64,000 nt of DNA, taken from assembly GCA_903838675.1 (NCBI GenBank), contig CAILZI010000111.1, positions 224-64,223 of the forward strand, read 5' to 3'. The notes beneath the pieces were generated by a model that ran no database searches, had not been told where the DNA came from, and saw only the letters and a list, made by a program, of their open reading frames with translations. Source of the stretch: an uncultured Verrucomicrobiota bacterium. Its GTDB lineage: Bacteria > Verrucomicrobiota > Verrucomicrobiia > Verrucomicrobiales > Verrucomicrobiaceae. Each line of letters begins with the position of its first letter. Position 1 is the stretch's first letter. Of the stretch, positions 432 to 32,161 are shown piece by piece. The translations under genes were made by a program, and so were the position numbers.

Positions 432-1958
432 CTACTTCCAAAACTTTTCCACTGCCGCTACTAGGCCGGGGATGCTGTTTTCCTTGGCTTCGACATCGAC
501 CTTGAGGCCGCGGGCCTTGATGGCGGCACTGGTGACGGGGCCGATGCTGGCGATCTTGATGCCGGCAGGGAGGGGGACTTTGAGGTTGAGGAAGTGCTCG
601 ACGGTGGAGGCGCTGGTGAAGGTGATCATGTCGGCGCCTTCTTCTTTCAGGCGGGCGAGGGCATCGAGGTTGTCCTCGGTCTCGCCGATGGTGCGGTAGG
701 CTTCGCATTCATCGACGATGGCCCCCATGCCTGCGAGTTCGTTGGCAATGACTTCACGTGTTTCCTGTGCACGTACCCAGAGGACCTTCACGTTTTCCAT
801 GTCCTGATGGTCTTTGAAAGCTTTGACGAGGCCTTCGGCGACGTAGTTCTTTTTGTCGGGCATGAGATCCACGGCGAGGTGGCGGGCCTTCACTTTTTCT
901 GCGGTGCCGGGTCCGATGCAGGCGATGCGCACGCCGCCGATGCTGCGGGCGTCGTTGTAGAGCTTGTCGAACATGGTGAAGAAGGCGTCCACGCCGTTCG
1001 GGCTGGTGAAGATGATCCAGTCGTAGGTATGGCAGTCCTGAACGAGCTCGCCGAAGGACAACTGATCTTCCACAGGGGCGATGCGGATGGTGGGAAGCTC
1101 GATGACATTGGCACCGAGTACGGAGAGCTGCTTGCTCAGCACGCTGGCCTGGGCGCGGGTGCGGGTGACGACGATCTTTTTGCCAAAGAGCGGGCGGTCT
1201 TCAAACCAGTTCAACTGCGGGCGCTCGGTGACGACGTCGCCAATCACGGCAACGGCGGGGGCTTTGAAGCCTGCGGCCTTCACCTTGGCAGCGATGTCGC
1301 TCAGGGTGCCGACGAGTGTCTGCTGGTGGCTGTGGGTGGCCCAGCGCACAAGGGCGACGGGGGTTTCTGGTTTCGCGCCGTGCTTGAGGAATTCGCGGGT
1401 GATTTCCTCAATGCGCTCCACGCCCATGAGGAAGACCTTGGTGCCGTCTGCCTGGGCGAGCTTGGCGTAGTTGAGCGAGGTATCAGGCTTGGTGGGGTCT
1501 TCGTGGCCGGTGAAAATGGTGAGTTGGGAGGCGTGGGAGCGATGCGTGACCGGAATGCCGGCGTAGGCTGGCCCGGCGATGGCGGAGGTGATGCCGGGGA
1601 CGATTTCAAACTTCACGCCGGCTTCGTAGAGCTCGGCTGCTTCTTCGGCGCCACGGCCAAAGAGGACGGGATCACCGCCCTTCAGGCGCGTGACGGTTTT
1701 GCCTTCGGTGGTTAGCTTGACGATGAGTTTGTTGATCTCTTCCTGTGACAGCGTGTGGTCGCCCGCCTTCTTGCCCACGTAGATGCTGGCGGCACCGTCC
1801 TTGGCGTAGCGGAGGTGCTCTGGGTTGCAGAGATAGTCGTAAACGAGCACGTCGGCGGCCTCGATGCATTCCTTCCCCTTAAGCGTGAGAAGTCCGGGAT
1901 CGCCGGGACCGGCGCCGACGAGGTAACAGATGCCAGGGGTGATTTTCTTGGTGGCCAT
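432..1958 (-). CDS. cobA/hemD: Fused uroporphyrinogen-III C-methyltransferase / uroporphyrinogen-III synthase
   Basis: N-terminal YLVGAGPGDPGLLTLKG, RLKGGDPVLFGRG and VPGITSA (CobA/CysG methyltransferase); C-terminal KKIVVTRTRAQA, IIFTSPNGV and ITFTSASTV (HemD). Start moved to ATG 1958 (MATKK). Confidence 0.95.
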   Translation of the reverse strand: MATKKITPGICYLVGAGPGDPGLLTLKGKECIEAADVLVYDYLCNPEHLRYAKDGAASIYVGKKAGDHTLSQEEINKLIVKLTTEGKTVTRLKGGDPVLFGRGAEEAAELYEAGVKFEIVPGITSAIAGPAYAGIPVTHRSHASQLTIFTGHEDPTKPDTSLNYAKLAQADGTKVFLMGVERIEEITREFLKHGAKPETPVALVRWATHSHQQTLVGTLSDIAAKVKAAGFKAPAVAVIGDVVTERPQLNWFEDRPLFGKKIVVTRTRAQASVLSKQLSVLGANVIELPTIRIAPVEDQLSFGELVQDCHTYDWIIFTSPNGVDAFFTMFDKLYNDARSIGGVRIACIGPGTAEKVKARHLAVDLMPDKKNYVAEGLVKAFKDHQDMENVKVLWVRAQETREVIANELAGMGAIVDECEAYRTIGETEDNLDALARLKEEGADMITFTSASTVEHFLNLKVPLPAGIKIASIGPVTSAAIKARGLKVDVEAKENSIPGLVAAVEKFWK

Positions 1959-2059
1959 GGTGGGAAGGGGGCGTACAAGGTGTCGAAACCATGGCACACC
2001 GCAAGGATGGATGATGGTTTCGCTTTTACTGATCGATGGGTGAGGTTAAATCGTTAAGG

Positions 2060-3031
2060 ATGCCATCTGTGCCTGCCATCCTCTTAAATCTGCCTGCTGC
2101 CTGTGATCCTGCCGAACCGGTGCTGCTGGCAATCTCAGGCGGGCGGGACTCCGTGGCGCTGCTGCACCTGCTGCGGGAGGCGGGATACACCCAGCTCATT
2201 CTCTGCCACTTGAACCACGGTTTGCGCGGCAAGGAATCGATCGACGATGCGGCGTTTGTGCGGCGGCTGGCGAAGAAGCTGGGGCTGAAATGCGAGATCG
2301 AGACGGAAGACGTGGCAGCGCTGGCGGAAAAAAGCCGTACTTCGACTGAGACGGCCGCCCGAGAGGCACGGCATGCGTTTTTGCTGCGAATGGCGGAGAA
2401 ATATGACGTGTGGGTCGTCCTGCTCGCGCATCATGCCGAGGATCAGGTGGAGACGATTTTTGCGAATCTTTGCCGTGGCAGCGGCCTGGCCGGAGTGGCG
2501 GGCATGCATGCGGTGCAGAGGCTGGATACGGGCCTGCATCTGGTGCGGCCATTGCTGCAAGTCCGGCGCAGCGAGATCGATGCCTATCTCAAATCAAAGC
2601 GCTTCAAGTTCCGGGAGGACTCCAGCAACACCTCGCCAAAACACCGCCGCAACCGGCTGCGGCATGAGGCGCTGCCACTGCTGAACGATATTTTTGCCCG
2701 TGACGTGGTGCCGCAGGTGCTGCGGCTGGGATCACTGGCTGAGCAAGATGATGACGCACTGCACCGGCAGGCGCTGGCGTTTCTGACGGCGGAAGGGCAG
2801 GTGAAGGATGATCGCTCGTTGGTGGTGACGCCGGAACTGCTGGCGCTGCATCCGGCGGTGTCGTCACGCGTGTTTGCGCTCTGGCTGCGCGAGGCGTGGG
2901 AACTGCCGGGCATCGAGCATGATGTCATTGAAGCGGCGATGGAAATGCTGGCCCCGGATGGTGCGGCCAAGATCAACTTGCCCGGAGACAAGCACCTGCG
3001 CCGCAAGGCAAAGCGGATGTGGGTGGAGTAA
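2060..3031 (+). CDS. tilS: tRNA(Ile)-lysidine synthetase
   Basis: PP-loop AISGGRDS, HLNHGLRG, AHHAEDQVET, RPLL, EDSSN, RNRLRH. Start is either ATG 2036 or 2060. Confidence 0.93.
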   Translation: MPSVPAILLNLPAACDPAEPVLLAISGGRDSVALLHLLREAGYTQLILCHLNHGLRGKESIDDAAFVRRLAKKLGLKCEIETEDVAALAEKSRTSTETAAREARHAFLLRMAEKYDVWVVLLAHHAEDQVETIFANLCRGSGLAGVAGMHAVQRLDTGLHLVRPLLQVRRSEIDAYLKSKRFKFREDSSNTSPKHRRNRLRHEALPLLNDIFARDVVPQVLRLGSLAEQDDDALHRQALAFLTAEGQVKDDRSLVVTPELLALHPAVSSRVFALWLREAWELPGIEHDVIEAAMEMLAPDGAAKINLPGDKHLRRKAKRMWVE

Positions 3032-3067
3032 CGAGGCTGAAGGCATCAACTCGCTCTGGGACTTCCA

Positions 3068-3083
3068 GAACGAGCTGAAGTTC
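3068..3083. repeat. Copy of a short dispersed GAACGA(G/A)CT-(G/A)AAG element
   Basis: gaacgagctgaagttc resembles 5537-5554 and 10793-10811; all three lie between convergent genes. Confidence 0.35.
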
Positions 3084-3095
3084 CAGCAGTCAATC

Positions 3096-4061
3096 TCAGC
3101 CGAGCGGATCATTGACGATGGCTAGAGCATGGCTGCCCACGCTGTAGGTCACATCGGTGATGCCGATGACGGAGCGGAGTTTGCCGGGCTCCACTGTGAG
3201 CGGGCCGGGCTTGGGCGCGCTGCCGGGCGCGGGCTGGGGGAAGGCGGTGGACATGCCGGTGTGGAAGGTGACGCTGCCTTCCACTTTCTGCAGCGCCTGA
3301 TGAATGTGGCCATTGAGCACGGTGACGGAGCCAAAGCGCTTGAGCAGGCCCAGAGCGCGTTCGCCATCGGTGGTGCCCCAGCCCCATTGCTCATAGACCA
3401 TCCAGAGCGGGATGTGGGCGAAGAGGACGACAGGCGTGCTGTCTTTGACGGCACGAAGGTCGTCCTCCATTCAGGCAAGCTGTTCCTCGCCAAGCTGGCC
3501 TAGGCGGCCTTCACGTTGCAGCATCACGTTGTTCAAGCCGATGAAGTGGGTGCCTTTGTGGTCGAAGCTGAACCAGCCGTGGCCCTTGGTGCTTTTGCCG
3601 AAGCGCTCAAGGTAGAGCTTGCCGTGGGCCTCCATCACATCGTGCTCGCCGGGGACGTAAAAGATCTGCTTGGTTTTGCAGCCCTTGAGGATTTGCTCAA
3701 GCGTGTCGAATTCCTCGGCTTCGGAGAGGTGGGTGAGATCCCCGGTGTGGAGGATGAAATCGGGAGCCACGGGGAGGGCGTTGATTTTATCGACTGCGGC
3801 CTGCAGCGTGCCGAGTACATCTTTGTTGGCCTCCTTGCTGAAGCCGATGTGGCTGTCGCTGATCTGGACGAAGCTGAAGTCAGCGCCGCTGACAACGGGA
3901 GCGTCTGCCGCATGTGCGCCCGCTGGCGAGAGGATACTGGAGGCCACCACGCCGCCCACGGCATTGAAGAGCACGCCGGTGCCGGCCCAGGCCATGCAGT
4001 TGAGGAAGCCGCGGCGGTCGATGCCGTCGTTGGTTTGATTTTGGAGCAGGATTTTGTTCAT
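3096..4061 (-). pseudogene. Tat-exported calcineurin-like metallophosphoesterase interrupted by one in-frame TGA (3471-3473)
   Basis: ORFs 3471-4061 and 3096-3470 are in the same frame (GEEQLA-TGA-MEDDL). Motifs DRRGFL (Tat), QISDSH, HTGDL and PGEHD are in the first half; FAHIP and NGHIH are in the second. Confidence 0.8.
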
Positions 4062-4096
4062 GTTTTTGTGGGTGTCGGTTTGGATTGACATGAGCC

Positions 4097-4125
4097 CAAC
4101 CAGCGTCGGCATTGGTTTATTCCCG
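4097..4125 (-). promoter_or_regulatory. Putative ECF-sigma promoter for the phosphoesterase (GGAATAAA-N15-GTTG)
   Basis: CGGGAATAAAC on the minus strand at 4115-4125 is identical to the plus-strand copy at 4146-4156, with the same 15-nt spacing to a GT(C/T) element. Confidence 0.6.
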
Positions 4126-4145
4126 TGCCAAAATTCTTTTTGGGG

Positions 4146-4174
4146 CGGGAATAAACTTATCCCTGCCGAAGTCT
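4146..4174 (+). promoter_or_regulatory. Putative autoregulatory ECF-sigma promoter (GGAATAAA-N15-GTCT)
   Basis: cgggaataaac ttatccctgccgaa gtct lies just upstream of the sigma gene; it is mirrored on the other strand. Confidence 0.6.
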
Positions 4175-4195
4175 GGAACCGAAAGCCCCTCGCTT

Positions 4196-4726
4196 GTGGA
4201 ACTCCGAATCGATCCCTTTGAACATACCATCCTCCCCCATCTGGATGCCGCCTACAACCTGGCGCGCTGGCTGGCGGGCAATGAGCATGATGCGCAAGAC
4301 ATCGTGCAAGAGTCGTGCCTGCGTGCGGTGAAGTTCTTTGAGGGATTTCGCGGCGGCAATCCGCGTGCCTGGCTGCTCACCATTGTGCGCAACACCAGCT
4401 ACACCTGGCTGAAGAAACGAGGCGCTGCCCACATGCATGCCAGCATCGACGATGAGGAATTCGAACTGGAAGATGTGGCGGCGAATCCGCAGCAGTTGGA
4501 AATGGCGATGGACTATGTCGAGCGCATGAGGGCGGCCATTGATCAACTGCCGCCGGAGTTCCGCGAGGTCATCGTACTGCGCGAAATGGAAGAGTATTCC
4601 TACAAGGAGATCGCCGACATTGCCGCAGTTCCCATCGGAACGGTGATGTCGCGACTGGCACGGGGACGCCAGCAACTGCGCATGATTCTCTGCGCTGAAA
4701 CCCAGACTGAGGGAGGACAACCATGA
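4196..4726 (+). CDS. ECF RNA polymerase sigma-70 factor
   Basis: LPHLDAAYNLARWL...DAQDIVQESCLRA (region 2) and REVIVLREMEEYSYKEIADIAAVPIGTVMSRLARGR (region 4). GTG 4196 preferred because it lies downstream of the predicted promoter. Confidence 0.92.
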   Translation: MELRIDPFEHTILPHLDAAYNLARWLAGNEHDAQDIVQESCLRAVKFFEGFRGGNPRAWLLTIVRNTSYTWLKKRGAAHMHASIDDEEFELEDVAANPQQLEMAMDYVERMRAAIDQLPPEFREVIVLREMEEYSYKEIADIAAVPIGTVMSRLARGRQQLRMILCAETQTEGGQP

Positions 4727-5490
4727 ACTGCCAAGAAACACAACACTGGCTCTCCGCCTATTGCGATGGTGAACTGCCGATGCCGCTGACACTTGAGATC
4801 GAGCGGCATTTTGGCGGCTGCCAGAACTGTGCGCTGATGAGGGATAACAGCACGCTCATGAGCAAGCGCCTACGTGCCGCAGCCTTCACGGTACCTGAGG
4901 GGCTGAGGCAGAGTGTGCGTGCCGCTGTGCAGCCGCAGGCCCAAGCCGCACGCGTCGTCCGGCCAGGCCGCAATTGGTGGACGGGCATTGCTGCCGCTGC
5001 TGCCATTGTCATCGCTGCCTTCCTGGTGCAGACGCATGACCGTGCGCAGGACAAGCGCCTGCTGTTGAGTGAAGTCACTGACAGCCACATTCGCTCGCTC
5101 ATCGGCGATCATTTGGTCGATGTCGCCTCATCGGACAAGCACACCGTGCGTCCGTGGTTTGAGGGCAAAGTGGACTTTGCACCCGCAGTGCCGGACCTAT
5201 CCGCGCAGGGATTTAAAACCATTGGCGGAAGGCTCGACTACATTGGCGGTCATTCGGCTGCCGCGCTTGTGTATCAATGCCGCAAGCACTACATCAGCCT
5301 GCTTCTCTGGCCTGCCGGGGTGGATGAGAATGCCTCATCGGGCATTCAATCTGAGGCAGCGCAGCGGGGCTACAGCATCGTGCGCTGGAACGCGGGAGGG
5401 CTGTGCTACTGGGCCATTTCAGAGATCAGTCAGGAGGATCTGAAGTCCTTTGCAAAAGCTTTTCAGGGAGAGGTCGGAGGCGTGCAATAA
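4723..5490 (+). CDS. Membrane anti-sigma factor with N-terminal zinc-finger (H-x3-C-x2-C)
   Basis: ATGA overlap with the sigma gene; LSAYCDGEL...RHFGGCQNC, one TM helix (WWTGIAAAAAIVIAAFLV), periplasmic DVASSDKHTVRPWFEGKVDFAP domain. Confidence 0.88.
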   Translation: MNCQETQHWLSAYCDGELPMPLTLEIERHFGGCQNCALMRDNSTLMSKRLRAAAFTVPEGLRQSVRAAVQPQAQAARVVRPGRNWWTGIAAAAAIVIAAFLVQTHDRAQDKRLLLSEVTDSHIRSLIGDHLVDVASSDKHTVRPWFEGKVDFAPAVPDLSAQGFKTIGGRLDYIGGHSAAALVYQCRKHYISLLLWPAGVDENASSGIQSEAAQRGYSIVRWNAGGLCYWAISEISQEDLKSFAKAFQGEVGGVQ

Positions 5491-5536
5491 GCAGCCGAGT
5501 ATACAGCTCGGTCTGGGTGAAGCGTACGCGCCTTCC

Positions 5537-5554
5537 GGAACGAGCTAAAGCTCG
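5537..5554. repeat. Copy of the short dispersed GAACGAGCT-AAAG-CTCG palindromic element
   Basis: ggaacgagctaaagctcg contains the hairpin cgagc-taaa-gctcg; it lies in a convergent intergenic gap. Confidence 0.4.
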
Positions 5555-5569
5555 AGAGTACTTTATGGC

Positions 5570-6805
5570 TCAGCCTTCCAGCGTGTGGACGAATAGGCCG
5601 CTGCGGAGCTTGGGTTCAAACCAGGTGCTCTTAGGGGGCATGATCTGGCCGACGTCGGAGATGGCCATGAGTTGATCGACGGTGGTGGGGAACATGGAGA
5701 AGGCCACGGTGTGCTCCTTGGCATTTACCAATTTTTCCAGTTCAGCCGTGCCACGGATGCCTCCGATGAAGTCGATGCGCTTGCTGGTGCGCGGGTCGTC
5801 GATGCCGAGGATCGGCTTGAGCAGGCGGTCCTGGAGGATGCTGACGTCGAGCTGTTCGATGGGGCTGGCATCCTTGGCGGGCTCCCAGTTAAGCTCATAC
5901 CACTGGTCCTTGAGGTACATGCAGCACTGGCCGGGTTTGGTGGGGGACTTGAGGGTGGTGGGCTTGATGGTGAAGACTTCGCCGACCTTCTTGAGAAACT
6001 CCTCGCGGTCGTTGCAGTTGAGATCTTTGACCGCGCGGTTGTAGGGAAGGATTTTGAGTTCGTTGCCGGGGAAGAGCACGCTGAGGAACCAGTTGTAGTT
6101 TTCCTCGCCTGTGTGGTTCGGGTTGGCCTCGCGGCGCAGCTTGCTGACGCGGAAGGCGCTGGCGGCGCGGTGGTGGCCATCGGCGACGTAGGCGCAGGGA
6201 ACCTGGCTTTCAAACAGGCCGGTCAAGGACACGCAGAGGCCGAGCGAGATGCGCCAGAGCTGATGGCGCACGCCATCGGGGGCGGTGAAGTCGTTGATGG
6301 GCTTCTCGGTCTTCATGAAGCTTTCGATCAGAGCGCTGATGCCGGGACGCTGGCGGTAGGTGAGGAAAATGGGGCCGGTGTTGGCATTGAGGGCATCGAC
6401 GAGATTGGTGCGGTCGTCCTCTTTGTCCTGGCGGGTCTTCTCGTGCTTCTTGATGATGTCCTTCTCGTAGTCCTCGGTGTGGCAGACGGTGACGAGGCCG
6501 GTCTGGCTGTGGCCGGCGATGACCTGGCGGTAAAGGTACATGCAGGGCTTGGCCTCGCGGACGAGGATGCCATCCTTCTGCAGGCGGTCGAAGTTTTCGC
6601 GGGCCTTGGCGTAAACGGGGGCGGAATAGGGATCGATTTCAGGATCGAGATCGATTTCGGCGCGGTCCACATGCAGGAGGCTGAAGGGCTTGCCCTTGGC
6701 CAGGGCGGCGGCTTCCTCCCGGTTCACCACGTCGTAAGGAACGGCGGCGACTTCGGGGGCGTTTTTCTGGGTGGGGACGAGACCTTTGAATGAGCGGATG
6801 CGCAT
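5570..6805 (-). CDS. DUF1015 family protein
   Basis: PYDVV, HEKTR, YVADGHHR, IDFIGG and C-terminal MPPKSTWFEPKLRSGL are typical of DUF1015. Confidence 0.88.
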   Translation of the reverse strand: MRIRSFKGLVPTQKNAPEVAAVPYDVVNREEAAALAKGKPFSLLHVDRAEIDLDPEIDPYSAPVYAKARENFDRLQKDGILVREAKPCMYLYRQVIAGHSQTGLVTVCHTEDYEKDIIKKHEKTRQDKEDDRTNLVDALNANTGPIFLTYRQRPGISALIESFMKTEKPINDFTAPDGVRHQLWRISLGLCVSLTGLFESQVPCAYVADGHHRAASAFRVSKLRREANPNHTGEENYNWFLSVLFPGNELKILPYNRAVKDLNCNDREEFLKKVGEVFTIKPTTLKSPTKPGQCCMYLKDQWYELNWEPAKDASPIEQLDVSILQDRLLKPILGIDDPRTSKRIDFIGGIRGTAELEKLVNAKEHTVAFSMFPTTVDQLMAISDVGQIMPPKSTWFEPKLRSGLFVHTLEG

Positions 6806-6835
6806 GGGGCGGGATAAGGCGAGGGGGGGCGGTTG

Positions 6836-6871
6836 TCAATCCGCACTCTTGGGCGGATTTGCTTCGTGATT
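6836..6871 (-). other. Orphan diverged copy of the last 11 codons plus stop of the cbiX-like gene
   Basis: Reads NHEANPPKSAD* versus NHEANAAKSAV* at 7423-7458; 26/36 nt identical, 5 differences synonymous. Confidence 0.7.
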
Positions 6872-6947
6872 CCGAACAATGCAAGGCATACTGGGGCAGA
6901 GCCTCAAGGGGCTGGTAAAAATGACTTAGATGAGGTATGAATGACTC

Positions 6948-7376
6948 GTGGACGACGACCTGGTGTTTTCAGAAAACGAAAGACCGCGCTACCTGCTGCC
7001 GGAAGGCTGCAAGGACCTTTATGACGTGATTCGGATGCAAGAGCGGGATGCCGCCATTGAAAAGGAGAGGGCTGCCATCCGTTCCAGTGCTCTTGAAAAA
7101 TATGCCAGCAAGGAAATGGAAGATCCCATGAGCACTTTGGCGCAGCTTGCGGAAGCCTTTGAAAAGCACCTCGGTGCGCCCGCCAAGGAATTGCCTCAAT
7201 GTATCGCGATTCCAATACCCGTGACCGTTGGTGAGCTGGCTGGCCTGCTTTTTATGCAGCCTTTCAAGATCATTTCTTTGCTGATTAAGCTCAAAATCTT
7301 TGCCAGCAAAGATTCAGAGATCAGCTACGAAACCGCTTCCAAAATTTGCGCTTTCTTTGGAGTGGCGGTGAAATAG
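6948..7376 (+). CDS. Small protein with a C-terminal IF2 N-terminal (IF2_N-like) domain
   Basis: IPIPVTVGELAGLLFMQPFKIISLLIKLKIFASKDSEISYETASKICAFFG matches the IF2_N pattern (xTVxELAxxL...IIxxLxxL...IxxETAxxIxxxFG); visibly AT-richer than its flanks. Confidence 0.7.
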   Translation: MDDDLVFSENERPRYLLPEGCKDLYDVIRMQERDAAIEKERAAIRSSALEKYASKEMEDPMSTLAQLAEAFEKHLGAPAKELPQCIAIPIPVTVGELAGLLFMQPFKIISLLIKLKIFASKDSEISYETASKICAFFGVAVK

Positions 7377-7422
7377 CCATGCGAATCCTTAAACTGACTG
7401 CTTCAGAGATAGGTCATTCTTT

Positions 7423-8898
7423 TCAAACAGCACTCTTCGCAGCATTCGCCTCATGGTTCTCCCGAGCCAACTTGCGTGCCGCAGAGACGACGTGGGTGCA
7501 GGCCTCAATGCAGAGCAGGGGCATGGCGTTGAGGGCGTGATTGGGCTGCGTTTTGGCAGCGGCCGCTCCGGCCATGGGCTGGGTGGGGGTGAGGGGCCAG
7601 AGGATGCGGCGGAGGCATTTGGTATTGGCGCAGGTTTTGCCGATCAGTGCGTGGGCCTGATCATCGGTGATGGTGTTGACGAAGCGATACATGCCGGTCT
7701 GGCGGCCGAGGAGGTCGCGCAGGGGGACGGCGGCGAGCTTTTCCTGCCCCAGTGCACGAGCCAGGCCGATGGCGGCGGGGTAGAAGAAATCGAGCGCGAG
7801 GCGCAGTTCGTCGAGATCGGCGAGATCGAGACGCCAGCCGCGATTTAGGGTGGGCGCGGAATGCAGGGGGCGGAAGGTGCCGCTGGCATCGTTTCGCGCG
7901 ATGAAGAGGGCATCGTGCGCTTCATGGTGGACCTGGAGATCCTCTTGGCCGCGATCGGCGATATGGCAGAGCGAATAGGTGCCATCGTCATTGGTGGCGA
8001 TGAGGATCTCTCCGATCTCATCGAGGCCTGAGTTCAACCAGTAGGCTAGGGAGGATTTCACCTCGTCGTTCGGCATGCCTTTTTTGTCCTTCACCTGATG
8101 CTTGGCATCGAAGTCGTGCACCTGATCGAGGATGACGTCTGCCATGAGAGGCTCGGTGCCGATGGCACCGCTGTAGTAGATCTGACGGCCTTGGAGCTGA
8201 TGCGGGTTTTGATGAAAGACGCCGATCTCGCTGAGCGCGGCACCGACTTCTTCGCGCATGCCGAGGAGGACGGGGATGTCCTGAAAGCTATGGAGGCCAT
8301 CGGCAATGAAGAAGGGGACGACGACGACATTCGGAGCTGTGGTGAGTTTGGCCCATTCAGCGACGAGGGGGGCTTCCTCCATGTAGGCGTCGATGACTTC
8401 GGCGAAGCCGTAGTGGCCGCTGCGAATGAGGACTACTTGATCCTGGATGGCCTTGGTGGAGTTCTCGTTCAGACTGGTGCCGTGGCCGACGATGACGAGG
8501 CTGGTCTGCTCGCGTGGCACATGGGGTGCGACTTCATCGGCACGCTGGATGAGGAGGCGCGTCATGTTGGGGTGGACGCCCACGGGATCGCAGTAGTGGA
8601 TCGTTTTGCCATCGCGGTGCGTGGTGGGGCCGTCGAGCTGGAGTTCACGCGGGAGCACCTGCTGGCAGAAGTAGCCTTCGCTGATGAAATTCGGGACGAT
8701 GTAGATGACCTCGCTGTCCACCATCTCGTACACTTCGCGCATGTTGGGCTCCTCTTTCCAGAAGCAGCAGACGACCTCGCGGAAGAGGCCGCGGCGGCGG
8801 ATGGAGTCGGCGTGCAGGTGAGTCGGGGCGCTGGAGTCCGGATTCGTGGTGGAACCGTGACCGACGATGATGAGGGCTGCGTGGGAGTAAGAGCTCAA
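7423..8898 (-). CDS. Tandem CbiX/SirB chelatase domains fused to a DR2241-like, Cys-containing C-terminal region
   Basis: Two chelatase repeats (LIIVGHGS...CCFWKEEP; LVIVGHGT...AYMEEAP...VVPFFIADGLHS), then LGRQTGMYR...CANTKCLRRILW...LCIEAC. TTG start. Confidence 0.8.
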   Translation of the reverse strand: MSSYSHAALIIVGHGSTTNPDSSAPTHLHADSIRRRGLFREVVCCFWKEEPNMREVYEMVDSEVIYIVPNFISEGYFCQQVLPRELQLDGPTTHRDGKTIHYCDPVGVHPNMTRLLIQRADEVAPHVPREQTSLVIVGHGTSLNENSTKAIQDQVVLIRSGHYGFAEVIDAYMEEAPLVAEWAKLTTAPNVVVVPFFIADGLHSFQDIPVLLGMREEVGAALSEIGVFHQNPHQLQGRQIYYSGAIGTEPLMADVILDQVHDFDAKHQVKDKKGMPNDEVKSSLAYWLNSGLDEIGEILIATNDDGTYSLCHIADRGQEDLQVHHEAHDALFIARNDASGTFRPLHSAPTLNRGWRLDLADLDELRLALDFFYPAAIGLARALGQEKLAAVPLRDLLGRQTGMYRFVNTITDDQAHALIGKTCANTKCLRRILWPLTPTQPMAGAAAAKTQPNHALNAMPLLCIEACTHVVSAARKLARENHEANAAKSAV

Positions 8899-8990
8899 GA
8901 AAGTGAGAAGTGGTGTGTCTGGTTCGTCCTCGTCCTCTTACTCGAACTCGAACTCGATCACGGCGTGTGCGCAGGCTGAGGCGATACGGA

Positions 8991-9039
8991 GAAACTGAAA
9001 ACTGAAAACTGGGAACTGAGAATTGAAAACTGGAAATTT
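8991..9039. repeat. Imperfect tandem heptamer array (consensus AAAACTG, about 7 units)
   Basis: gaaactg aaaactg aaaactg ggaactg agaattg aaaactg gaaattt. Confidence 0.8.
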
Positions 9040-9149
9040 AAGAAAGGATGCGCGGAGTGATGGAGGGGTGGGATGATGAACGGCCCGTGATTACGTCACG
9101 GGAGGCACGGTTGGAAACAATTCGTCATGCGGGTTTCCTCATTTCTCAT

Positions 9150-9527
9150 TCACCCGTGGCGGAAGCGCACGTCCTTGATCTTTGCATCGGGCAGCTTCTC
9201 CTGAAGGCGCTTGAGAATTTTCACTTTCTCCTGCATCAGCGCGTGGTGTGCGGTGGGCTGCATGAGACGGACGGTCAGGATGCCGCGCTCAAAGGTGTCC
9301 GGGCGGGTGAGTTTGAAGAGGAATGCACCGACGATCTCCTGCCAGGCGGCGAGGATGTCCTCAAGCTTCACGCGGTTGGCCATGCCGGCCTTGGCCATGA
9401 TCTGCGTGGCGAGGTCTCCCACTCTGAGCGTGGGCAGGTCCATCAGCGGCCCGTCCTCCACGCCGCGCCAGGCCGAGATGAGGCTGTGGCGCCTGCGCAT
9501 GGCGGCGGTGGGCTTGCGTTTGTCCAT
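9150..9527 (-). CDS. DUF721 / DciA-like protein
   Basis: LAAWQEIVG...TRPDTFERGILTV...LKRL...IKDVRFR fits the DUF721 pattern. Confidence 0.7.
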   Translation of the reverse strand: MDKRKPTAAMRRRHSLISAWRGVEDGPLMDLPTLRVGDLATQIMAKAGMANRVKLEDILAAWQEIVGAFLFKLTRPDTFERGILTVRLMQPTAHHALMQEKVKILKRLQEKLPDAKIKDVRFRHG

Positions 9528-9628
9528 GGGCGCATCCTAGACGGCAATTGGCGGGTGCTAAATCGCAATTTTCAAATCTCGCATTCCGCCGGGTCACCGC
9601 TAAAGATGCCCTCCCCCGACCACCCGCC

Positions 9629-10756
9629 ATGTCCGCCGCCCCTCTTCCCACCGACCACACTGACCCGATCAACGCGCAAATCCTCGCCGTGAGCGAAGAC
9701 CGCATCAAAGGCTTCACCCCCACACCGTTTCAGGACATCGCGCAGTTGTCCGGCCTGCCGCTGGAGACGGTGGTGGAGCGCATCCAGGCGATGCTGAAGG
9801 CCGGGGTGATCCGCCGCGTGCGGCAAACCCTGCTGGCCAACAAGCTGGCTGAAGGCGCGCTGGTGGCCTGGAAAGTGCCCACGGAAAAGCTCGATGCCGC
9901 CTTTGAATTCCTCTTCAAGCAGGACCCCTTCAGCGGGCATGTGGTGCTGCGCTCCACAGACCGCGAAGTGAGCGGCAGTGACTACCGCCTGTGGACTACG
10001 CTGAAAGTGCCGCAGGGGTATGATATCAACCAGCATTGCGATGTGCTGGCGAAGCTGATCGGTGCGGAAAGCTACTACACCATGGAAGCGCATGGCATTT
10101 TCGCCCTGGGCGTGGGCCATGTGCGCCGCAAGACGCTGGAGCCCGGCGATAGAGCCGATGTGCCTGCTGTGATGATGACCACCAACATCGCCGAGCTGGA
10201 TGAAGAAGAGTGGAACGTGCTGCTGCATCTCAAGGGAGATCTGAGCGTGGACGAAGTTGGCCCAAATCCATGGGAAGGCCGCGCCAAGGCTGCGGGTGTC
10301 TCGTTTGAGAAATTCTGTGAAGTCGCCAAACAGCTCGACAAAAAAGGCGTCATTGGCCGCTTCTCCACTTTCTTGGAGCACGTGAAGCCCAGCTCCACGG
10401 GCGTGCGCGTGACGCGCTTCAATGCTCTGTTCCACTGGAAGGTGCCCAAAGGCATGGAAGAACGGGCAGGCGGCGAAGTGGGCCGCCACACCATCATGAC
10501 CCACGCCTACTGGCGTGAAGGCGGTGAGCGCTTTGCCAACGTGAACATCATGGGTGTCATCCACGGCACCGACAAAGAGATGGTGCTGGCTCACAAGGCC
10601 GCCATCGACAAGCATCTGGCCGAAGAAGGCATCCCGCTGGAATACACGAATGTGTTCTGGGGCGGCCGCAGCGAAATCAAGCCCAGCGAGATCTCACCGA
10701 TCGTGTTCAAGGAATGGCACGCGAAGTGGAAGGATGTGGCGGGGCCGGTGGTGTGA
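9629..10756 (+). CDS. Fused AhbA-AhbB / NirDL-type siroheme decarboxylase (Lrp/AsnC-like fold, two repeats)
   Basis: Two HTH+Lrp units (PFQDIAQLSGL...AGVIRRV; PWEGRAKAAGVS...KGVIGRF), each followed by a GALVAWKVP / NALFHWKVP segment and an HxxxR motif (GHVVLR, THAYWR). Start moved to ATG 9629. Confidence 0.78.
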   Translation: MSAAPLPTDHTDPINAQILAVSEDRIKGFTPTPFQDIAQLSGLPLETVVERIQAMLKAGVIRRVRQTLLANKLAEGALVAWKVPTEKLDAAFEFLFKQDPFSGHVVLRSTDREVSGSDYRLWTTLKVPQGYDINQHCDVLAKLIGAESYYTMEAHGIFALGVGHVRRKTLEPGDRADVPAVMMTTNIAELDEEEWNVLLHLKGDLSVDEVGPNPWEGRAKAAGVSFEKFCEVAKQLDKKGVIGRFSTFLEHVKPSSTGVRVTRFNALFHWKVPKGMEERAGGEVGRHTIMTHAYWREGGERFANVNIMGVIHGTDKEMVLAHKAAIDKHLAEEGIPLEYTNVFWGGRSEIKPSEISPIVFKEWHAKWKDVAGPVV

Positions 10757-20598: not shown

Positions 20599-22095
20599 AT
20601 GATTCGGAATCTATTGTTCGACTGGTCCGGCACGCTGGTGGATGACCTGCCAGGCGTGGTGTTTGCCGTGAACGGCATGCTGCGCGCCGCTGGAGTGGCG
20701 GAAATGACGCGGGAGGAATTCAAGACGCGGTTTCGCCTGCCCTACACCGAGTTTTTTGCGGAGGTGCTGCCGGGCCTGCCGCTGGAGCGCCTGCAGCAGC
20801 TTTATCTGGAGCACTTCACACATGCACATGCAGACATCCGCCTGCTGCCCCACGCGCTGGAGTGCCTCAAGCACGCCGCCGCCACGGGGCGCCGACTCGT
20901 GGTGCTGAGCAGTGCGCCGCTGCCGCATGTGGCGGCCCAGGCGGAGGCTCTGGGGGTGCGGGATCTGTTTGAAGTCATGCGCTGCGGAGTCATCGACAAA
21001 CGCACCGAAATCCACGGGCTGCTGGCGGAGCTGGACATGGCCGCCGCAGAGACTGCCTTCATCGGCGACATGCGGCATGACATTGATGCGGGCCATGCCG
21101 CCGGGGTGGTGACCATCGCCACGTGTACCGGCTACGAAAGCGCCGAGACGCTCATGACATCTGCGCCAGACATGCTGGTGCCCGATCTCTCGCGTCTGCC
21201 TGCCTGGCTGGGGCCTCTGGGCGGGAGTGATGGGGCCTACCCGGTGTCCACCGTGGGGGCGCTCATTTTGAACTCAAAAGGTGAGATGCTGCTCATCCGG
21301 ACGCACAAGTGGAGCCACCGCTGGGGCATCCCCGGGGGGAAGATCAAACGCGGCGAAACCTGCGAGGAGGCGCTCATTCGCGAGATCCAGGAGGAAACTG
21401 CGCTCACGCTGCAGGGCATCGAATTCGTCATGGTGCAGGACTGCATTGAGCCGGTGGAGTTTCAGCGGTCCGCTCACTTTCTGCTGCTGAACTACATCGC
21501 ACGCTGTGCCGATGACGCACCGCCGGTGGTGCTGAATGAGGAGGCGCAGGCCTTTCAATGGCTGCCGCTGGCCGAGGCCCTGCAGATGGATCTGAACATC
21601 CCCACGCGAGTTCTGCTGGACGAATGCATGAGGCAGGGGCTGCTGGGCGAAAAGCCGAATGAAGCTCCAGCACCGCAAGCCCTGGCCGGGACTTCCGCAT
21701 TGTCAGATCCCCATCCCCGGCTAAAACCACCACCCCACATGCTTCCTCCTGACGAAATACGTATTTCCGCCCTGCGCCTGACCACGCACATCGGTGTTCC
21801 TGAGGAGGAGCGGGCCGGGAGCCAGGTGCTGGAGGCGGACGTCACCCTGCGCATTCGCCGGCGTTTTGAGGCGATGGACGATGACCTTGCGGCGACGATC
21901 GACTACGCCGCAGTCGCCGCGCGGCTGCAGGCACTGGCGGCGGAGCGGCCCCGGCGGCTGATCGAAACCCTCGCAGCCGAGATGGCGGCGTGTGTGCTGG
22001 AGGAATTTCAAGCCATTGGTGTGACCCTGGAATTGCGCAAACGCATCCTGCCGGACACGGATCATGTGGCGGTGCGTCTTGTGCGTGGAGACTGA
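20599..22095 (+). CDS. folB: Three-domain fusion: HAD phosphatase, Nudix hydrolase, dihydroneopterin aldolase (FolB)
   Basis: HAD motifs FDWSGT / LSS / DK / IGDMRHD; Nudix box GGKIKRGETCEEALIREIQEET; FolB HIGVPEEER...DDDLAATIDYA...LIETLA...LELRK. No stop codon in 498 codons. Confidence 0.88.
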   Translation: MIRNLLFDWSGTLVDDLPGVVFAVNGMLRAAGVAEMTREEFKTRFRLPYTEFFAEVLPGLPLERLQQLYLEHFTHAHADIRLLPHALECLKHAAATGRRLVVLSSAPLPHVAAQAEALGVRDLFEVMRCGVIDKRTEIHGLLAELDMAAAETAFIGDMRHDIDAGHAAGVVTIATCTGYESAETLMTSAPDMLVPDLSRLPAWLGPLGGSDGAYPVSTVGALILNSKGEMLLIRTHKWSHRWGIPGGKIKRGETCEEALIREIQEETALTLQGIEFVMVQDCIEPVEFQRSAHFLLLNYIARCADDAPPVVLNEEAQAFQWLPLAEALQMDLNIPTRVLLDECMRQGLLGEKPNEAPAPQALAGTSALSDPHPRLKPPPHMLPPDEIRISALRLTTHIGVPEEERAGSQVLEADVTLRIRRRFEAMDDDLAATIDYAAVAARLQALAAERPRRLIETLAAEMAACVLEEFQAIGVTLELRKRILPDTDHVAVRLVRGD

Positions 22096-31087: not shown

Positions 31088-32161
31088 TCAAGCCGCCACT
31101 TTACGCCGATTCTTCGCCGCCTTGAGCTGGCCGCAGCCAGCCGCCACATCGATGCCCCGGCGCTGGCGGATGGTGCAGGGAAATCCGGCTTCCTGAAGGA
31201 TGCGGTGGAAGGTGTCGGCTGAGCTGTCGCTGCTTTCGGTGCCGGTGTAACCGTCGGTGCGGTTGAGGGGGATGAGATTGATGTGGGCGTCCAGGCCGTG
31301 GAGCAGCTCGGCGATCCGCTGCGCGTGCTGGGGCGTGTCGTTGACGCCTTCGATCAAGGTCCAGGCAAAGAAGATGCGGCGGCCGGTCTGCGCATTGTAG
31401 CTGCGGCACGCGGCGATGAGATCGGCCAGGGGCCAGCGCTGATTGGCGGGGATCAGTTTGGCGCGTTCCTCCTCCGTGGCGGCATGGAGACTGACGGCGA
31501 GGTTGTAGGGCCGCTTTTCCGCCGCCATGCGCAGGATGCCAGGCACGACGCCGACGGTGGAGACGCTGATCTTGCTGGGGCCGATGTTCAGGCCCCGGGT
31601 GTCGCAGATGATGTCGAGGGCGGTCATCACGGCGTCGTAATTGTGAAGGGGCTCGCCCATGCCCATGAAGACGAGATTGCGCAGGCCTTTTTTCTCACCT
31701 TTGGCGCGCACGGCGCGCTGGGCATGCAGCACCTGGGCCACGATTTCGCCGGGCCGAAGATGCCGCACGAAACCCATCTGGCCGGTGGCGCAAAAGACGC
31801 AGCCCATGGCGCAGCCCGCCTGGGTGCTGACGCAGGCGGTGTGGCGGCCGGTGTAGCCCATGATGACGGTCTCGATCTCCTGCGCATCCGCCATGCGGAG
31901 GAGGAACTTGTGCGTCAAACCATCGCTGCTGGGGGTGTCCAAAGAGACGGGCGGGACATCGAGCGTCCAGGAGCCGTCGCCGAGCACCTGCGTGAGCCAT
32001 TTGCGCAGGGGGGGGAGGAGATCCTCGCGGGCGAGGGGATCCGCCATCGCTTTGAAGTGCAGGGTGTTCCAAAGTGTGCCGGCATGAGCCGGACGCAGGC
32101 CTGCCGCCACGATCTGCTCACGCAGCTGGTCAAAGGTCAGGTCATGGAATGATTGTGGCAT
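31088..32161 (-). CDS. rlmN: RlmN-family radical SAM RNA methyltransferase
   Basis: CVSTQAGCAMGCVFCATG (CxxxCxxC), FMGMGEPL, LAVSLHA, INLIPLN, RRGIDVAAGCGQL. Confidence 0.92.
   Translation of the reverse strand: MPQSFHDLTFDQLREQIVAAGLRPAHAGTLWNTLHFKAMADPLAREDLLPPLRKWLTQVLGDGSWTLDVPPVSLDTPSSDGLTHKFLLRMADAQEIETVIMGYTGRHTACVSTQAGCAMGCVFCATGQMGFVRHLRPGEIVAQVLHAQRAVRAKGEKKGLRNLVFMGMGEPLHNYDAVMTALDIICDTRGLNIGPSKISVSTVGVVPGILRMAAEKRPYNLAVSLHAATEEERAKLIPANQRWPLADLIAACRSYNAQTGRRIFFAWTLIEGVNDTPQHAQRIAELLHGLDAHINLIPLNRTDGYTGTESSDSSADTFHRILQEAGFPCTIRQRRGIDVAAGCGQLKAAKNRRKVAA

Follow-up and report, generated by a model that had tools for sequence, protein, structure and literature searches.

Genes for siroheme synthesis and decarboxylation cluster loosely in a Verrucomicrobiaceae genome and probably belong to a siroheme-dependent heme b pathway ending with ChdC

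The route from siroheme to heme is assigned by reviews to archaea and sulfate reducers and is called oxygen-independent (PMC7242693, PMC8529089, PMC13564367). In Desulfovibrio and Methanosarcina this anaerobic Ahb pathway uses separate AhbA and AhbB subunits and AhbC on a siroheme precursor, has the radical-SAM enzyme AhbD at its last step and runs wholly independently of oxygen. In haloarchaea, represented by Haloferax volcanii with its AhbA/B, AhbC, AhbD and the ChdC-domain protein PitA, two-module AhbAB-type decarboxylation is followed by the formation of coproheme by AhbC and by an aerobic ChdC step, and neither HemE nor a ferrochelatase is present (PMC5746218, PMC8305020). H. volcanii employs ChdC aerobically and AhbD anaerobically on this route (PMC5746218), and about one third of haloarchaea have ChdC only (PMC8305020). 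Experimental demonstration of the combination of AhbAB, AhbC and ChdC is confined to haloarchaea. ChdC is also the last enzyme of the coproporphyrin-dependent pathway of Firmicutes and Actinobacteria, which consists of HemE, CgoX, CpfC and ChdC. Two further proteins are relevant here, namely the fused two-module decarboxylase NirDL of Hydrogenobacter thermophilus (PDB 4CH7 and 4CZC), which acts in heme d1 synthesis, and DR2241 of Deinococcus radiodurans (PDB 2JH3), whose own function is, to our knowledge, not established.

The source genome is a freshwater, Prosthecobacter-like metagenome-assembled genome of the Verrucomicrobiaceae (7.1 Mb, 265 contigs, 92.6% complete), from which a single stretch of 64,000 nucleotides, called the window below, was analysed. 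The original prediction held that cobA/hemD, a double-CbiX chelatase and an AhbAB-like decarboxylase lie close together in the window among unrelated genes, and both points are borne out: all three genes were recovered in place with their domains confirmed (Table 1), and they are separated by tilS, a metallophosphoesterase gene, an ECF sigma/anti-sigma pair, a DUF1015 gene, an IF2_N-like ORF and dciA. As was also predicted, the window encodes neither AhbC, AhbD nor a precorrin-2 dehydrogenase. The grouping is a loose cluster spread over both strands, not an operon. Since each of the three genes occurs as one copy without paralogues in the 7.1-Mb genome, their co-location within 10 kb is improbable by chance (about 5e-4 by a rough estimate). 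The order cobA-hemD/tilS/DUF1015/cbiX/dciA/ahbAB is conserved among close Prosthecobacter relatives alone and breaks down at greater distance.

Table 1. Genes of the cluster and dciA, with positions in the window
Feature	Position	Strand	Basis and remarks
cobA-hemD fusion	432..1997	-	521 aa; Pfam TP_methylase + HEM4; NCBIfam SUMT models
DR2241-type double-CbiX class II chelatase	7423..8898	-	491 aa; CbiX-CbiX-DR2241-Fer4_23 with four C-terminal Cys; Pfam and PDB 2JH3 match
Fused AhbA/AhbB (NirDL-type) siroheme decarboxylase, predicted	9629..10756	+	PF17805 x2 + PF22451; NirDL fold match
dciA (helicase-loader family)	9150..9527	-	Pfam DciA 58.7 bits; between cbiX and ahbAB, outside the pathway

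These three genes are probably those members of a siroheme-dependent heme b pathway that fall inside the window; the pathway would be carried by AhbAB, AhbC and ChdC, its last step being an oxygen-era one. In the scheme that we infer, which covers all enzymatic activities, the metal of the chelatase and the order of the steps, HemA, HemB, HemC and the HemD half of the fusion would make uroporphyrinogen III, and the CobA half would methylate it to precorrin-2. Precorrin-2 would then be oxidised to sirohydrochlorin by an enzyme that is not among the recognised matches, and the DR2241-type CbiX chelatase would put in iron to give siroheme. The siroheme pool would serve both as cofactor for CysI and NirA and as substrate of the fused AhbAB, which would decarboxylate it to 12,18-didecarboxysiroheme; an AhbC-like radical-SAM enzyme would form coproheme by taking off both acetates of rings A and B, and ChdC would convert this coproheme with H2O2 to heme b.

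This reading agrees with the suggestion of the original prediction that the organism may make heme by the alternative route, for which a complete HemE-dependent pathway was named as contrary evidence. The opposite was found: neither HemE/URO-D nor a ferrochelatase was detected in the source genome, and no ferrochelatase was detected in any of 61 Verrucomicrobiaceae genomes that we surveyed, 44 of them of high quality, complete ones included. With HemE and CpfC not found, coproheme must come from siroheme, and the three COX1 genes of heme-copper oxidases in the source genome mean that the organism needs heme. As to the later enzymes, the proposed search for ahbC and ahbD gave a match for the first alone. 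One radical-SAM/SPASM protein on another contig is AhbC-like, with a full-length match to TIGR04546/TIGR04054 (AhbC/NirJ1) of 500 bits against a cut-off of 650, whereas AhbD was not found in this 92.6% complete genome, which has that one SPASM protein and no second AhbC/AhbD-like match at E<=1e-40. ChdC, for which a search had likewise been proposed, is encoded on another contig and exceeds its equivalog cut-off (NF008913, 254.6 against 253 bits). It belongs with the Firmicutes-like ChdC proteins (E 1.5e-52 to Geobacillus HemQ). Aligned to Geobacillus and Listeria ChdC (1T0T and 9T54), it retains the catalytic Tyr in FYPM, the Lys in KRR and the proximal His in H..GRKY, and some 30 extra residues separate its two halves. 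Since ChdC is the most likely last enzyme and there is no AhbD, the route would be a hybrid Ahb/ChdC one rather than the fully anaerobic one, which amends the prediction.

The scheme resembles each of the described pathways only in part. Siroheme as precursor and the AhbAB and AhbC homologues are in common with Desulfovibrio and Methanosarcina, but the decarboxylase is fused and divergent here and ChdC comes last. It shares its sequence of AhbAB-type decarboxylation, AhbC and aerobic ChdC, as well as the lack of HemE and ferrochelatase, with haloarchaea; however, the organism is a bacterium of the Verrucomicrobiota, one fused AhbAB replaces two paralogues, ChdC is a standalone protein without an ABM domain, and neither AhbD nor a recognisable precorrin-2 dehydrogenase is present. 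It ends with ChdC as in Firmicutes and Actinobacteria, but lacks detectable HemE and CpfC.

For the early steps, the fusion protein matches Pfam TP_methylase with 168 bits (residues 25-235) and HEM4 with 202 bits (286-514), the latter domain being complete (201.6 bits, profile positions 2-231 of 231), and it lies above the NCBIfam SUMT cut-offs (NF004790, 302.9 against 198; TIGR01469, 297.9 against 185). These matches suggest a uroporphyrinogen-III synthase joined to an SAM-dependent uroporphyrinogen-III C-methyltransferase, which would yield precorrin-2. The upstream genes are found elsewhere in the genome, that is hemA with a CcsA-like gene, a HemC-like gene adjoining hemA, and hemB. A precorrin-2 dehydrogenase, either SirC or the N-terminal domain of CysG, was not found genome-wide, the sole NAD_binding_7 (PF13241) match being the NAD domain of HemA, and the absence predicted for the window hence extends to the whole genome. 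The genome has only two TP_methylase genes, cobA-hemD among them, and no cobalamin methylase set was found in it; there is thus no de novo B12 pathway vying for the chelatase.

The chelatase aligns over its full length with DR2241 (E 1.8e-36) and has the same four-domain architecture and cysteine set, with GHGS/GHGT His motifs in the two CbiX halves and cysteines arranged as CX4C...CX3C. We read it as a sirohydrochlorin ferrochelatase, specificity for Fe2+ rather than Co or Ni being suggested by the context, since no B12 methylase set and no other chelatase were found in the genome and siroheme enzymes are present (CysI and NirA, both above their cut-offs). The family occurs in 56 of the 61 surveyed genomes (43 of the 44 high-quality ones), and the controls of this survey, Deinococcus and Haloferax, gave matches as expected; a DR2241-type protein is thus another feature shared with Haloferax.

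At the level of the family, AhbAB and ChdC are each present in 58 of 61 genomes and in all 44 of high quality. A URO-D match was obtained in one genome of the 61; it is weak (199 bits), falls in the score range of paralogues and is probably a paralogue itself. That HemE and ferrochelatase are lacking throughout the lineage is a direct observation, like the gene content, the domain and fold assignments and the conserved residues, and it marks a trait of the lineage rather than a hole in one assembly. Moreover, across the phylum the fused AhbAB and true HemE (E<1e-100) occupy complementary families and are nearly mutually exclusive. In a genus that appears to be Akkermansia, the sole type of AhbAB is the same one (55% identical), and the genomes carry AhbC together with a second, AhbD-like radical-SAM protein. 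The siroheme route would be the standard heme route of an entire aerobic bacterial family, as far as sampled genomes go, and with the AhbC/AhbD form added it would serve much of the class that contains Akkermansia. In addition, direct work on the precorrin-2 dehydrogenase step could draw on aerobic bacteria of this lineage that can be cultivated and on its 0.9-Mb genome.

The distribution of AhbC is quite different. It was found in 22 of 61 family genomes (18 of 44 of high quality); it is absent from four closed family genomes, where the top radical-SAM matches reach 55-61 bits, and from two further families with AhbAB and ChdC (3/3 and 2/2 genomes). A complete symbiont relative of 0.916 Mb keeps hemA-hemC-cobA/hemD, hemB, cbiX, ahbAB, chdC and COX1, and neither AhbC (by tblastn) nor CysI and NirA were found in it, so that siroheme has no visible use there except as heme precursor. 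AhbAB and ChdC without AhbC are thus seen in 26 of the 44 high-quality family genomes, the four closed ones among them, as well as in the two further families of the class and the symbiont, which implies another enzyme for the conversion of didecarboxysiroheme to coproheme. We lean, by a small degree, towards the view that most Verrucomicrobiaceae make heme through AhbAB and ChdC without AhbC and AhbD, by means of an undescribed, probably oxygen- or peroxide-dependent enzyme or of ChdC performing both oxidative steps.

Because AhbC is missing from most relatives, it may not do the middle step in vivo under air even where it is encoded. The pathway of the source genome would then be the same, except that under air another oxygen-tolerant enzyme, or ChdC itself, would turn didecarboxysiroheme into coproheme, and the AhbC-like protein would be an accessory isoenzyme for low oxygen; the genome would hold the AhbC-independent enzyme beside its AhbC. 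The scattered occurrence of AhbC described above favours this alternative, but no candidate enzyme survived testing, and a second enzyme is not required in a genome that has AhbC. We give it slightly less than an even chance. The same gap had been pointed out in 2010 in Sulfolobus acidocaldarius, Haloquadratum and Nitrosopumilus (PMC3004389), and a 2026 review states that the reported enzymes cover all heme synthesis (PMC13564367), a statement to which an AhbC-independent step, if real, would run counter. The same Verrucomicrobiaceae lineage is suited to direct work on this step.

A more radical alternative takes the two-module protein for an Lrp/AsnC transcription regulator, with CobA and CbiX supplying siroheme to sulfite and nitrite reductases alone and with heme being imported. 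NCBI and JGI records do call orthologues Lrp/AsnC regulators, the genome encodes CysI and NirA, and the protein remains below the NCBIfam equivalog cut-offs of AhbA (NF040708, 56.2 against 140 bits) and AhbB (NF040707, 88.3 against 125 bits); such scores, like that of AhbC, mark divergent members. However, its single frame contains two PF17805 (AsnC_trans_reg2) modules and PF22451 (NirDL-like HTH), and its closest solved relative by sequence is NirDL 4CH7 (E 1e-13 over both halves, about 20% identity), with which it shares the fused two-module architecture. The AF2 model (pLDDT 92, two repeats) is nearer to siroheme decarboxylases in Foldseek, with NirDL 4CH7 at E 3e-21 (TM 0.77 by target), NirDL 4CZC at 1.4e-20 and AhbA/B 4CZD at 1e-5, than to Lrp/AsnC regulators, which come at 3e-4 or weaker. 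His93 and His226 of 4CH7, which we take to be the essential active-site histidines of NirDL, have H104 and H251 as their counterparts in the alignment; these two do not vary in a set of 32 or in one of 18 orthologues, nor does H292-x-Y-W-R in the 32. Furthermore, orthologues are 55-67% identical across the class, the distribution of the gene in the phylum complements that of HemE, the gene is kept with ChdC in the 0.9-Mb genome without a siroheme-dependent reductase, and UniRef calls the P. fluviatilis orthologue a siroheme decarboxylase. The regulator reading is thus very unlikely, and sequence and model together point to a siroheme decarboxylase that would give 12,18-didecarboxysiroheme. The regulator names of key-enzyme orthologues in NCBI and JGI hide the pathway from automated reconstructions.

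Still less credible is a role of the genes in making heme d1, rather than heme b, for a cd1 nitrite reductase by way of a NirDLGH-type decarboxylase and NirJ: NirDL is the top solved relative and the radical-SAM protein scores equally on NirJ1 and AhbC models, but NirJ1 is a former name of AhbC-type proteins, no Cytochrom_D1 (PF02239) protein, be it NirS, NirF or NirN, was matched in the genome, as the check proposed earlier also asked, and ahbAB is universal in a family without HemE and ferrochelatase and with heme-copper oxidases.

Next to these genes, an apparent ORF at 9048-9692 on the forward strand is a spurious antisense frame of dciA, its translation resembling antisense sequence. The open frame of ahbAB reaches upstream to a TTG at 9548, and the ATG at 9629 is the likelier start.

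The best explanation of the data is that this genome (7.09 Mb in 265 contigs, 92.6% complete, with the window on contig C111) makes heme b by a hybrid Ahb/ChdC route, in view of functions assigned from sequence, fold and gene content. In this route siroheme would be processed by the fused decarboxylase AhbAB, its product would be converted by AhbC into coproheme, and coproheme would be turned into heme b by ChdC. The original prediction had proposed an alternative heme route together with a search of the whole genome for genes of both pathways. The route is upheld by this search, for an AhbC-like gene and ChdC are present, while no match was found in the genome to URO-D/HemE or ferrochelatase (hemH); AhbD and Cytochrom_D1 were not found either.

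The clustering noticed in the original prediction, namely cobA/hemD, a double-CbiX chelatase and an AhbAB-like gene close together with unrelated genes between them, is borne out by domain matches. The intervening genes are tilS, a metallophosphoesterase gene, an ECF sigma/anti-sigma pair, a DUF1015 gene, an IF2_N-like ORF and dciA. The closest loci, with identity of 99-80%, are labelled as Prosthecobacter, Brevifollis and Verrucomicrobiaceae MAGs and as P. fluviatilis, and the order cobA-hemD/tilS/DUF1015/cbiX/dciA/ahbAB is retained in close Prosthecobacter relatives. In the nearest relatives (loci L010, L013 and L025) tilS and DUF1015 are not separated by the phosphoesterase/sigma/anti-sigma block, which looks like a lineage-specific insertion. 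In more distant members of the family and class the gene order is gone, and a comparison of 21 loci from the family and 12 at class level showed no conserved neighbour of ahbAB outside Prosthecobacter. The three genes are spread over both strands, and no convincing promoter/terminator pattern was seen around cbiX-dciA-ahbAB. The clustering is genuine, though loose, and the functional inference does not depend on it. The dciA gene, lying between cbiX and ahbAB here, adjoins chdC in the closed genome of a relative (G150, a symbiont), and these placements may be the remnant of an older chdC-dciA-ahbAB neighbourhood.

Locations of the features discussed, in the window unless another contig or locus is named
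Feature	Location	Strand	Remarks
CobA-HemD fusion	432-1997	-	TP_methylase and HEM4 domains; SUMT NCBIfam scores above cut-offs
Metallophosphoesterase/ECF sigma/zf-HC2 anti-sigma block	3471-5490	-/+/+	
DUF1015 gene	5570-6805		between cobA-hemD and cbiX
DR2241-type chelatase	7423-8898	-	two CbiX stretches, then DR2241 and Fer4_23
Discarded ORF	9048-9692	+	antisense frame of dciA, ruled out as a real gene
dciA	9150-9527	-	
AhbAB-type ORF	ends 10756	+	two AsnC_trans_reg2 modules and a NirDL-type HTH; start probably the ATG at 9629
HAD hydrolase-NUDIX-FolB	20599-22095	+	three-part fusion; FolB is dihydroneopterin aldolase
Radical-SAM gene	31088-32161	-	RlmN, rejected as pathway enzyme
hemA	C265:10179-11252		
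chdC	L004:1333-2217		
ThiG-like gene	C116, L004:2815-3597	+	directly downstream of chdC
400-aa radical-SAM protein	C100:29052-30263 (L152)	-	
G150 double-CbiX ORF	C1:819925-820755		
G150 DR2241/Fe-S ORF	C1:805714-806331		
G150 dciA	C1:317706-318161		

The identification of AhbAB is central to the route. Since its NCBIfam scores for AhbA and AhbB are below the cut-offs, the two-module protein should be regarded as a divergent member of the AhbA/AhbB family. Among proteins of known structure it comes closest to NirDL, a fused siroheme decarboxylase (4CH7, E 1e-13, with both halves aligned), and to AhbA and AhbB from Desulfovibrio. An AlphaFold model built with 18 orthologues as input (pLDDT 92) matched the fold of NirDL at E 3e-21, AhbA/B at about 1e-5 and Lrp/AsnC regulators at 3e-4 or weaker. 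The histidines aligned with His93 and His226 of NirDL, which we take to be the essential ones, are invariant in 32 orthologues across the class, and the second half also has an invariant H-x-Y-W-R motif. Within the class, orthologues share 55-67% identity, those from small genomes appearing to be Akkermansia among them. Their database names are in conflict: NCBI and JGI call orthologues Lrp/AsnC regulators, whereas UniRef calls that of P. fluviatilis a siroheme decarboxylase.

As for the steps leading to siroheme, HemB is encoded in the genome, and HemA, a CcsA-like gene and a HemC-like gene lie on one contig. The window chelatase matches Deinococcus DR2241 (PDB 2JH3, E 1.8e-36) along the entire length; the GHGS/GHGT motifs are conserved, and so are four C-terminal cysteines. 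Only two TP_methylase genes occur in the genome, which means no de novo cobalamin pathway and leaves iron as the likely metal of this chelatase. No precorrin-2 dehydrogenase (SirC or the CysG N-terminal domain) was detected in the whole genome, because the sole NAD_binding_7 match is HemA; one may speculate that the Fe-S domain of the chelatase plays this role. For the later steps, the match of the single SPASM radical-SAM gene spans the whole of the AhbC and NirJ1 models with 500 bits (cut-off 650). A second AhbC/AhbD-like match at E<=1e-40 was not found in this genome, and the same search did see one in genomes appearing to be Akkermansia. The one ChdC scores above the equivalog cut-off and retains the Tyr, Lys and His aligned with Firmicutes ChdC; in comparison with Geobacillus and Listeria ChdC, about 30 residues (about 144-174) are inserted between its two ferredoxin-like halves. 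The genome also encodes CysI, a NirA-family protein and three heme-copper oxidase subunit I genes.

The lack of HemE and ferrochelatase is not due to faulty assembly, because a survey of 61 Verrucomicrobiaceae genomes, 44 of high quality and four of them closed, gave the same picture. Ferrochelatase occurs in none of the 61 (0/44 high-quality), and URO-D in one (1/44), with a match of 199 bits that falls in the score range of URO-D paralogues elsewhere in the phylum. Fused AhbAB and ChdC are each found in 58/61 genomes and in all 44 high-quality ones, and the DR2241-type chelatase in 56/61 (43/44). Across the phylum (120 high-quality genomes), true HemE (E<1e-100) is found in families complementary to those with fused AhbAB, and a single genome has both.

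AhbC is less regular, being found in 22/61 family genomes (18/44 high-quality), so that 26/44 high-quality genomes are without it (this observation refers to family genomes G047, G003, G016, G020 and G010 and loci L090-L129). In five family genomes, four of them closed, no radical-SAM match exceeds 61 bits to the AhbC model. The threshold of the AhbC survey was too strict to catch AhbD-like matches, and the absence of AhbD in the family covers these five genomes plus the present one. AhbC is also absent from two other families of the class having AhbAB and ChdC (3/3 and 2/2 genomes). The small genomes appearing to be Akkermansia have AhbC and an adjacent AhbD-like gene, without ChdC. G150 (915,884 bp; loci L137, L143 and L158-L202), from an AhbC-lacking family of the class with AhbAB and ChdC, was examined over its whole length. 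It has hemA-hemC-cobA/hemD, a HemL-like gene, hemB, double CbiX, ahbAB, chdC, COX1 and a HemW-like gene, with the DR2241-type chelatase split into two ORFs 14 kb apart. No AhbC was found by tblastn, nor CysI or NirA, and siroheme has no visible use in G150 but as heme precursor. Its CxxxCxxC proteins, read by eye, are two MqnC/MqnE-like proteins, LipA, HemW, MiaB and a KamA-like one. No recognisable enzyme for the conversion of didecarboxysiroheme to coproheme is seen in the AhbC-less genomes; it is possible that a bifunctional ChdC covers this middle step.

To our knowledge, the only experimental precedent for the siroheme/AhbAB/AhbC/ChdC route is in Haloferax. There ChdC is used for growth under aerobic conditions and AhbD under anaerobic ones (PMC5746218), and roughly one haloarchaeon in three has ChdC alone (PMC8305020). 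The AhbC gap was already noted in 2010 for S. acidocaldarius, Haloquadratum and Nitrosopumilus (PMC3004389). Reviews assign the siroheme route to archaea and sulfate reducers only, with oxygen-independent enzymes (PMC7242693, PMC8529089, PMC13564367). Our literature search found no paper on siroheme decarboxylase or heme biosynthesis in Verrucomicrobia/Prosthecobacter, and nothing on an oxygen-dependent AhbC analogue.

None of the candidates considered for the middle-step enzyme survived, whether DUF1015, a radical-SAM protein with a NirJ-like core, or the neighbours of chdC and ahbAB. In G150 the genes next to ahbAB, chdC and the hem cluster are those for citrate synthase, succinyl-CoA ligase, a CCA-adding enzyme, NAD kinase and FtsJ and a heptosyltransferase-like gene, and small conserved ORFs 5' of chdC come from reading some short conserved gene in the wrong frame. 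The sole conserved neighbour of chdC (19/21 family genomes) looks like ThiG by eye; it has no NCBIfam match at 1e-8 and weak TIM-barrel matches only. DUF1015, though common in the family, is absent from G150, and a control search matched Bacteroides, Thermotoga and Methanosarcina, yet not Sulfolobus or Haloferax. The radical-SAM protein, of 400 aa and of no named family, has weak best matches to the NirJ, AhbC and AhbD models; it is absent from the families with AhbAB and ChdC but no AhbC, and present in those with HemE. Its orthologues (L153, L155 and L156) are 71-77% identical across genera, and it may be a selenoprotein, because several orthologues from other Verrucomicrobiota families contain one in-frame TGA.
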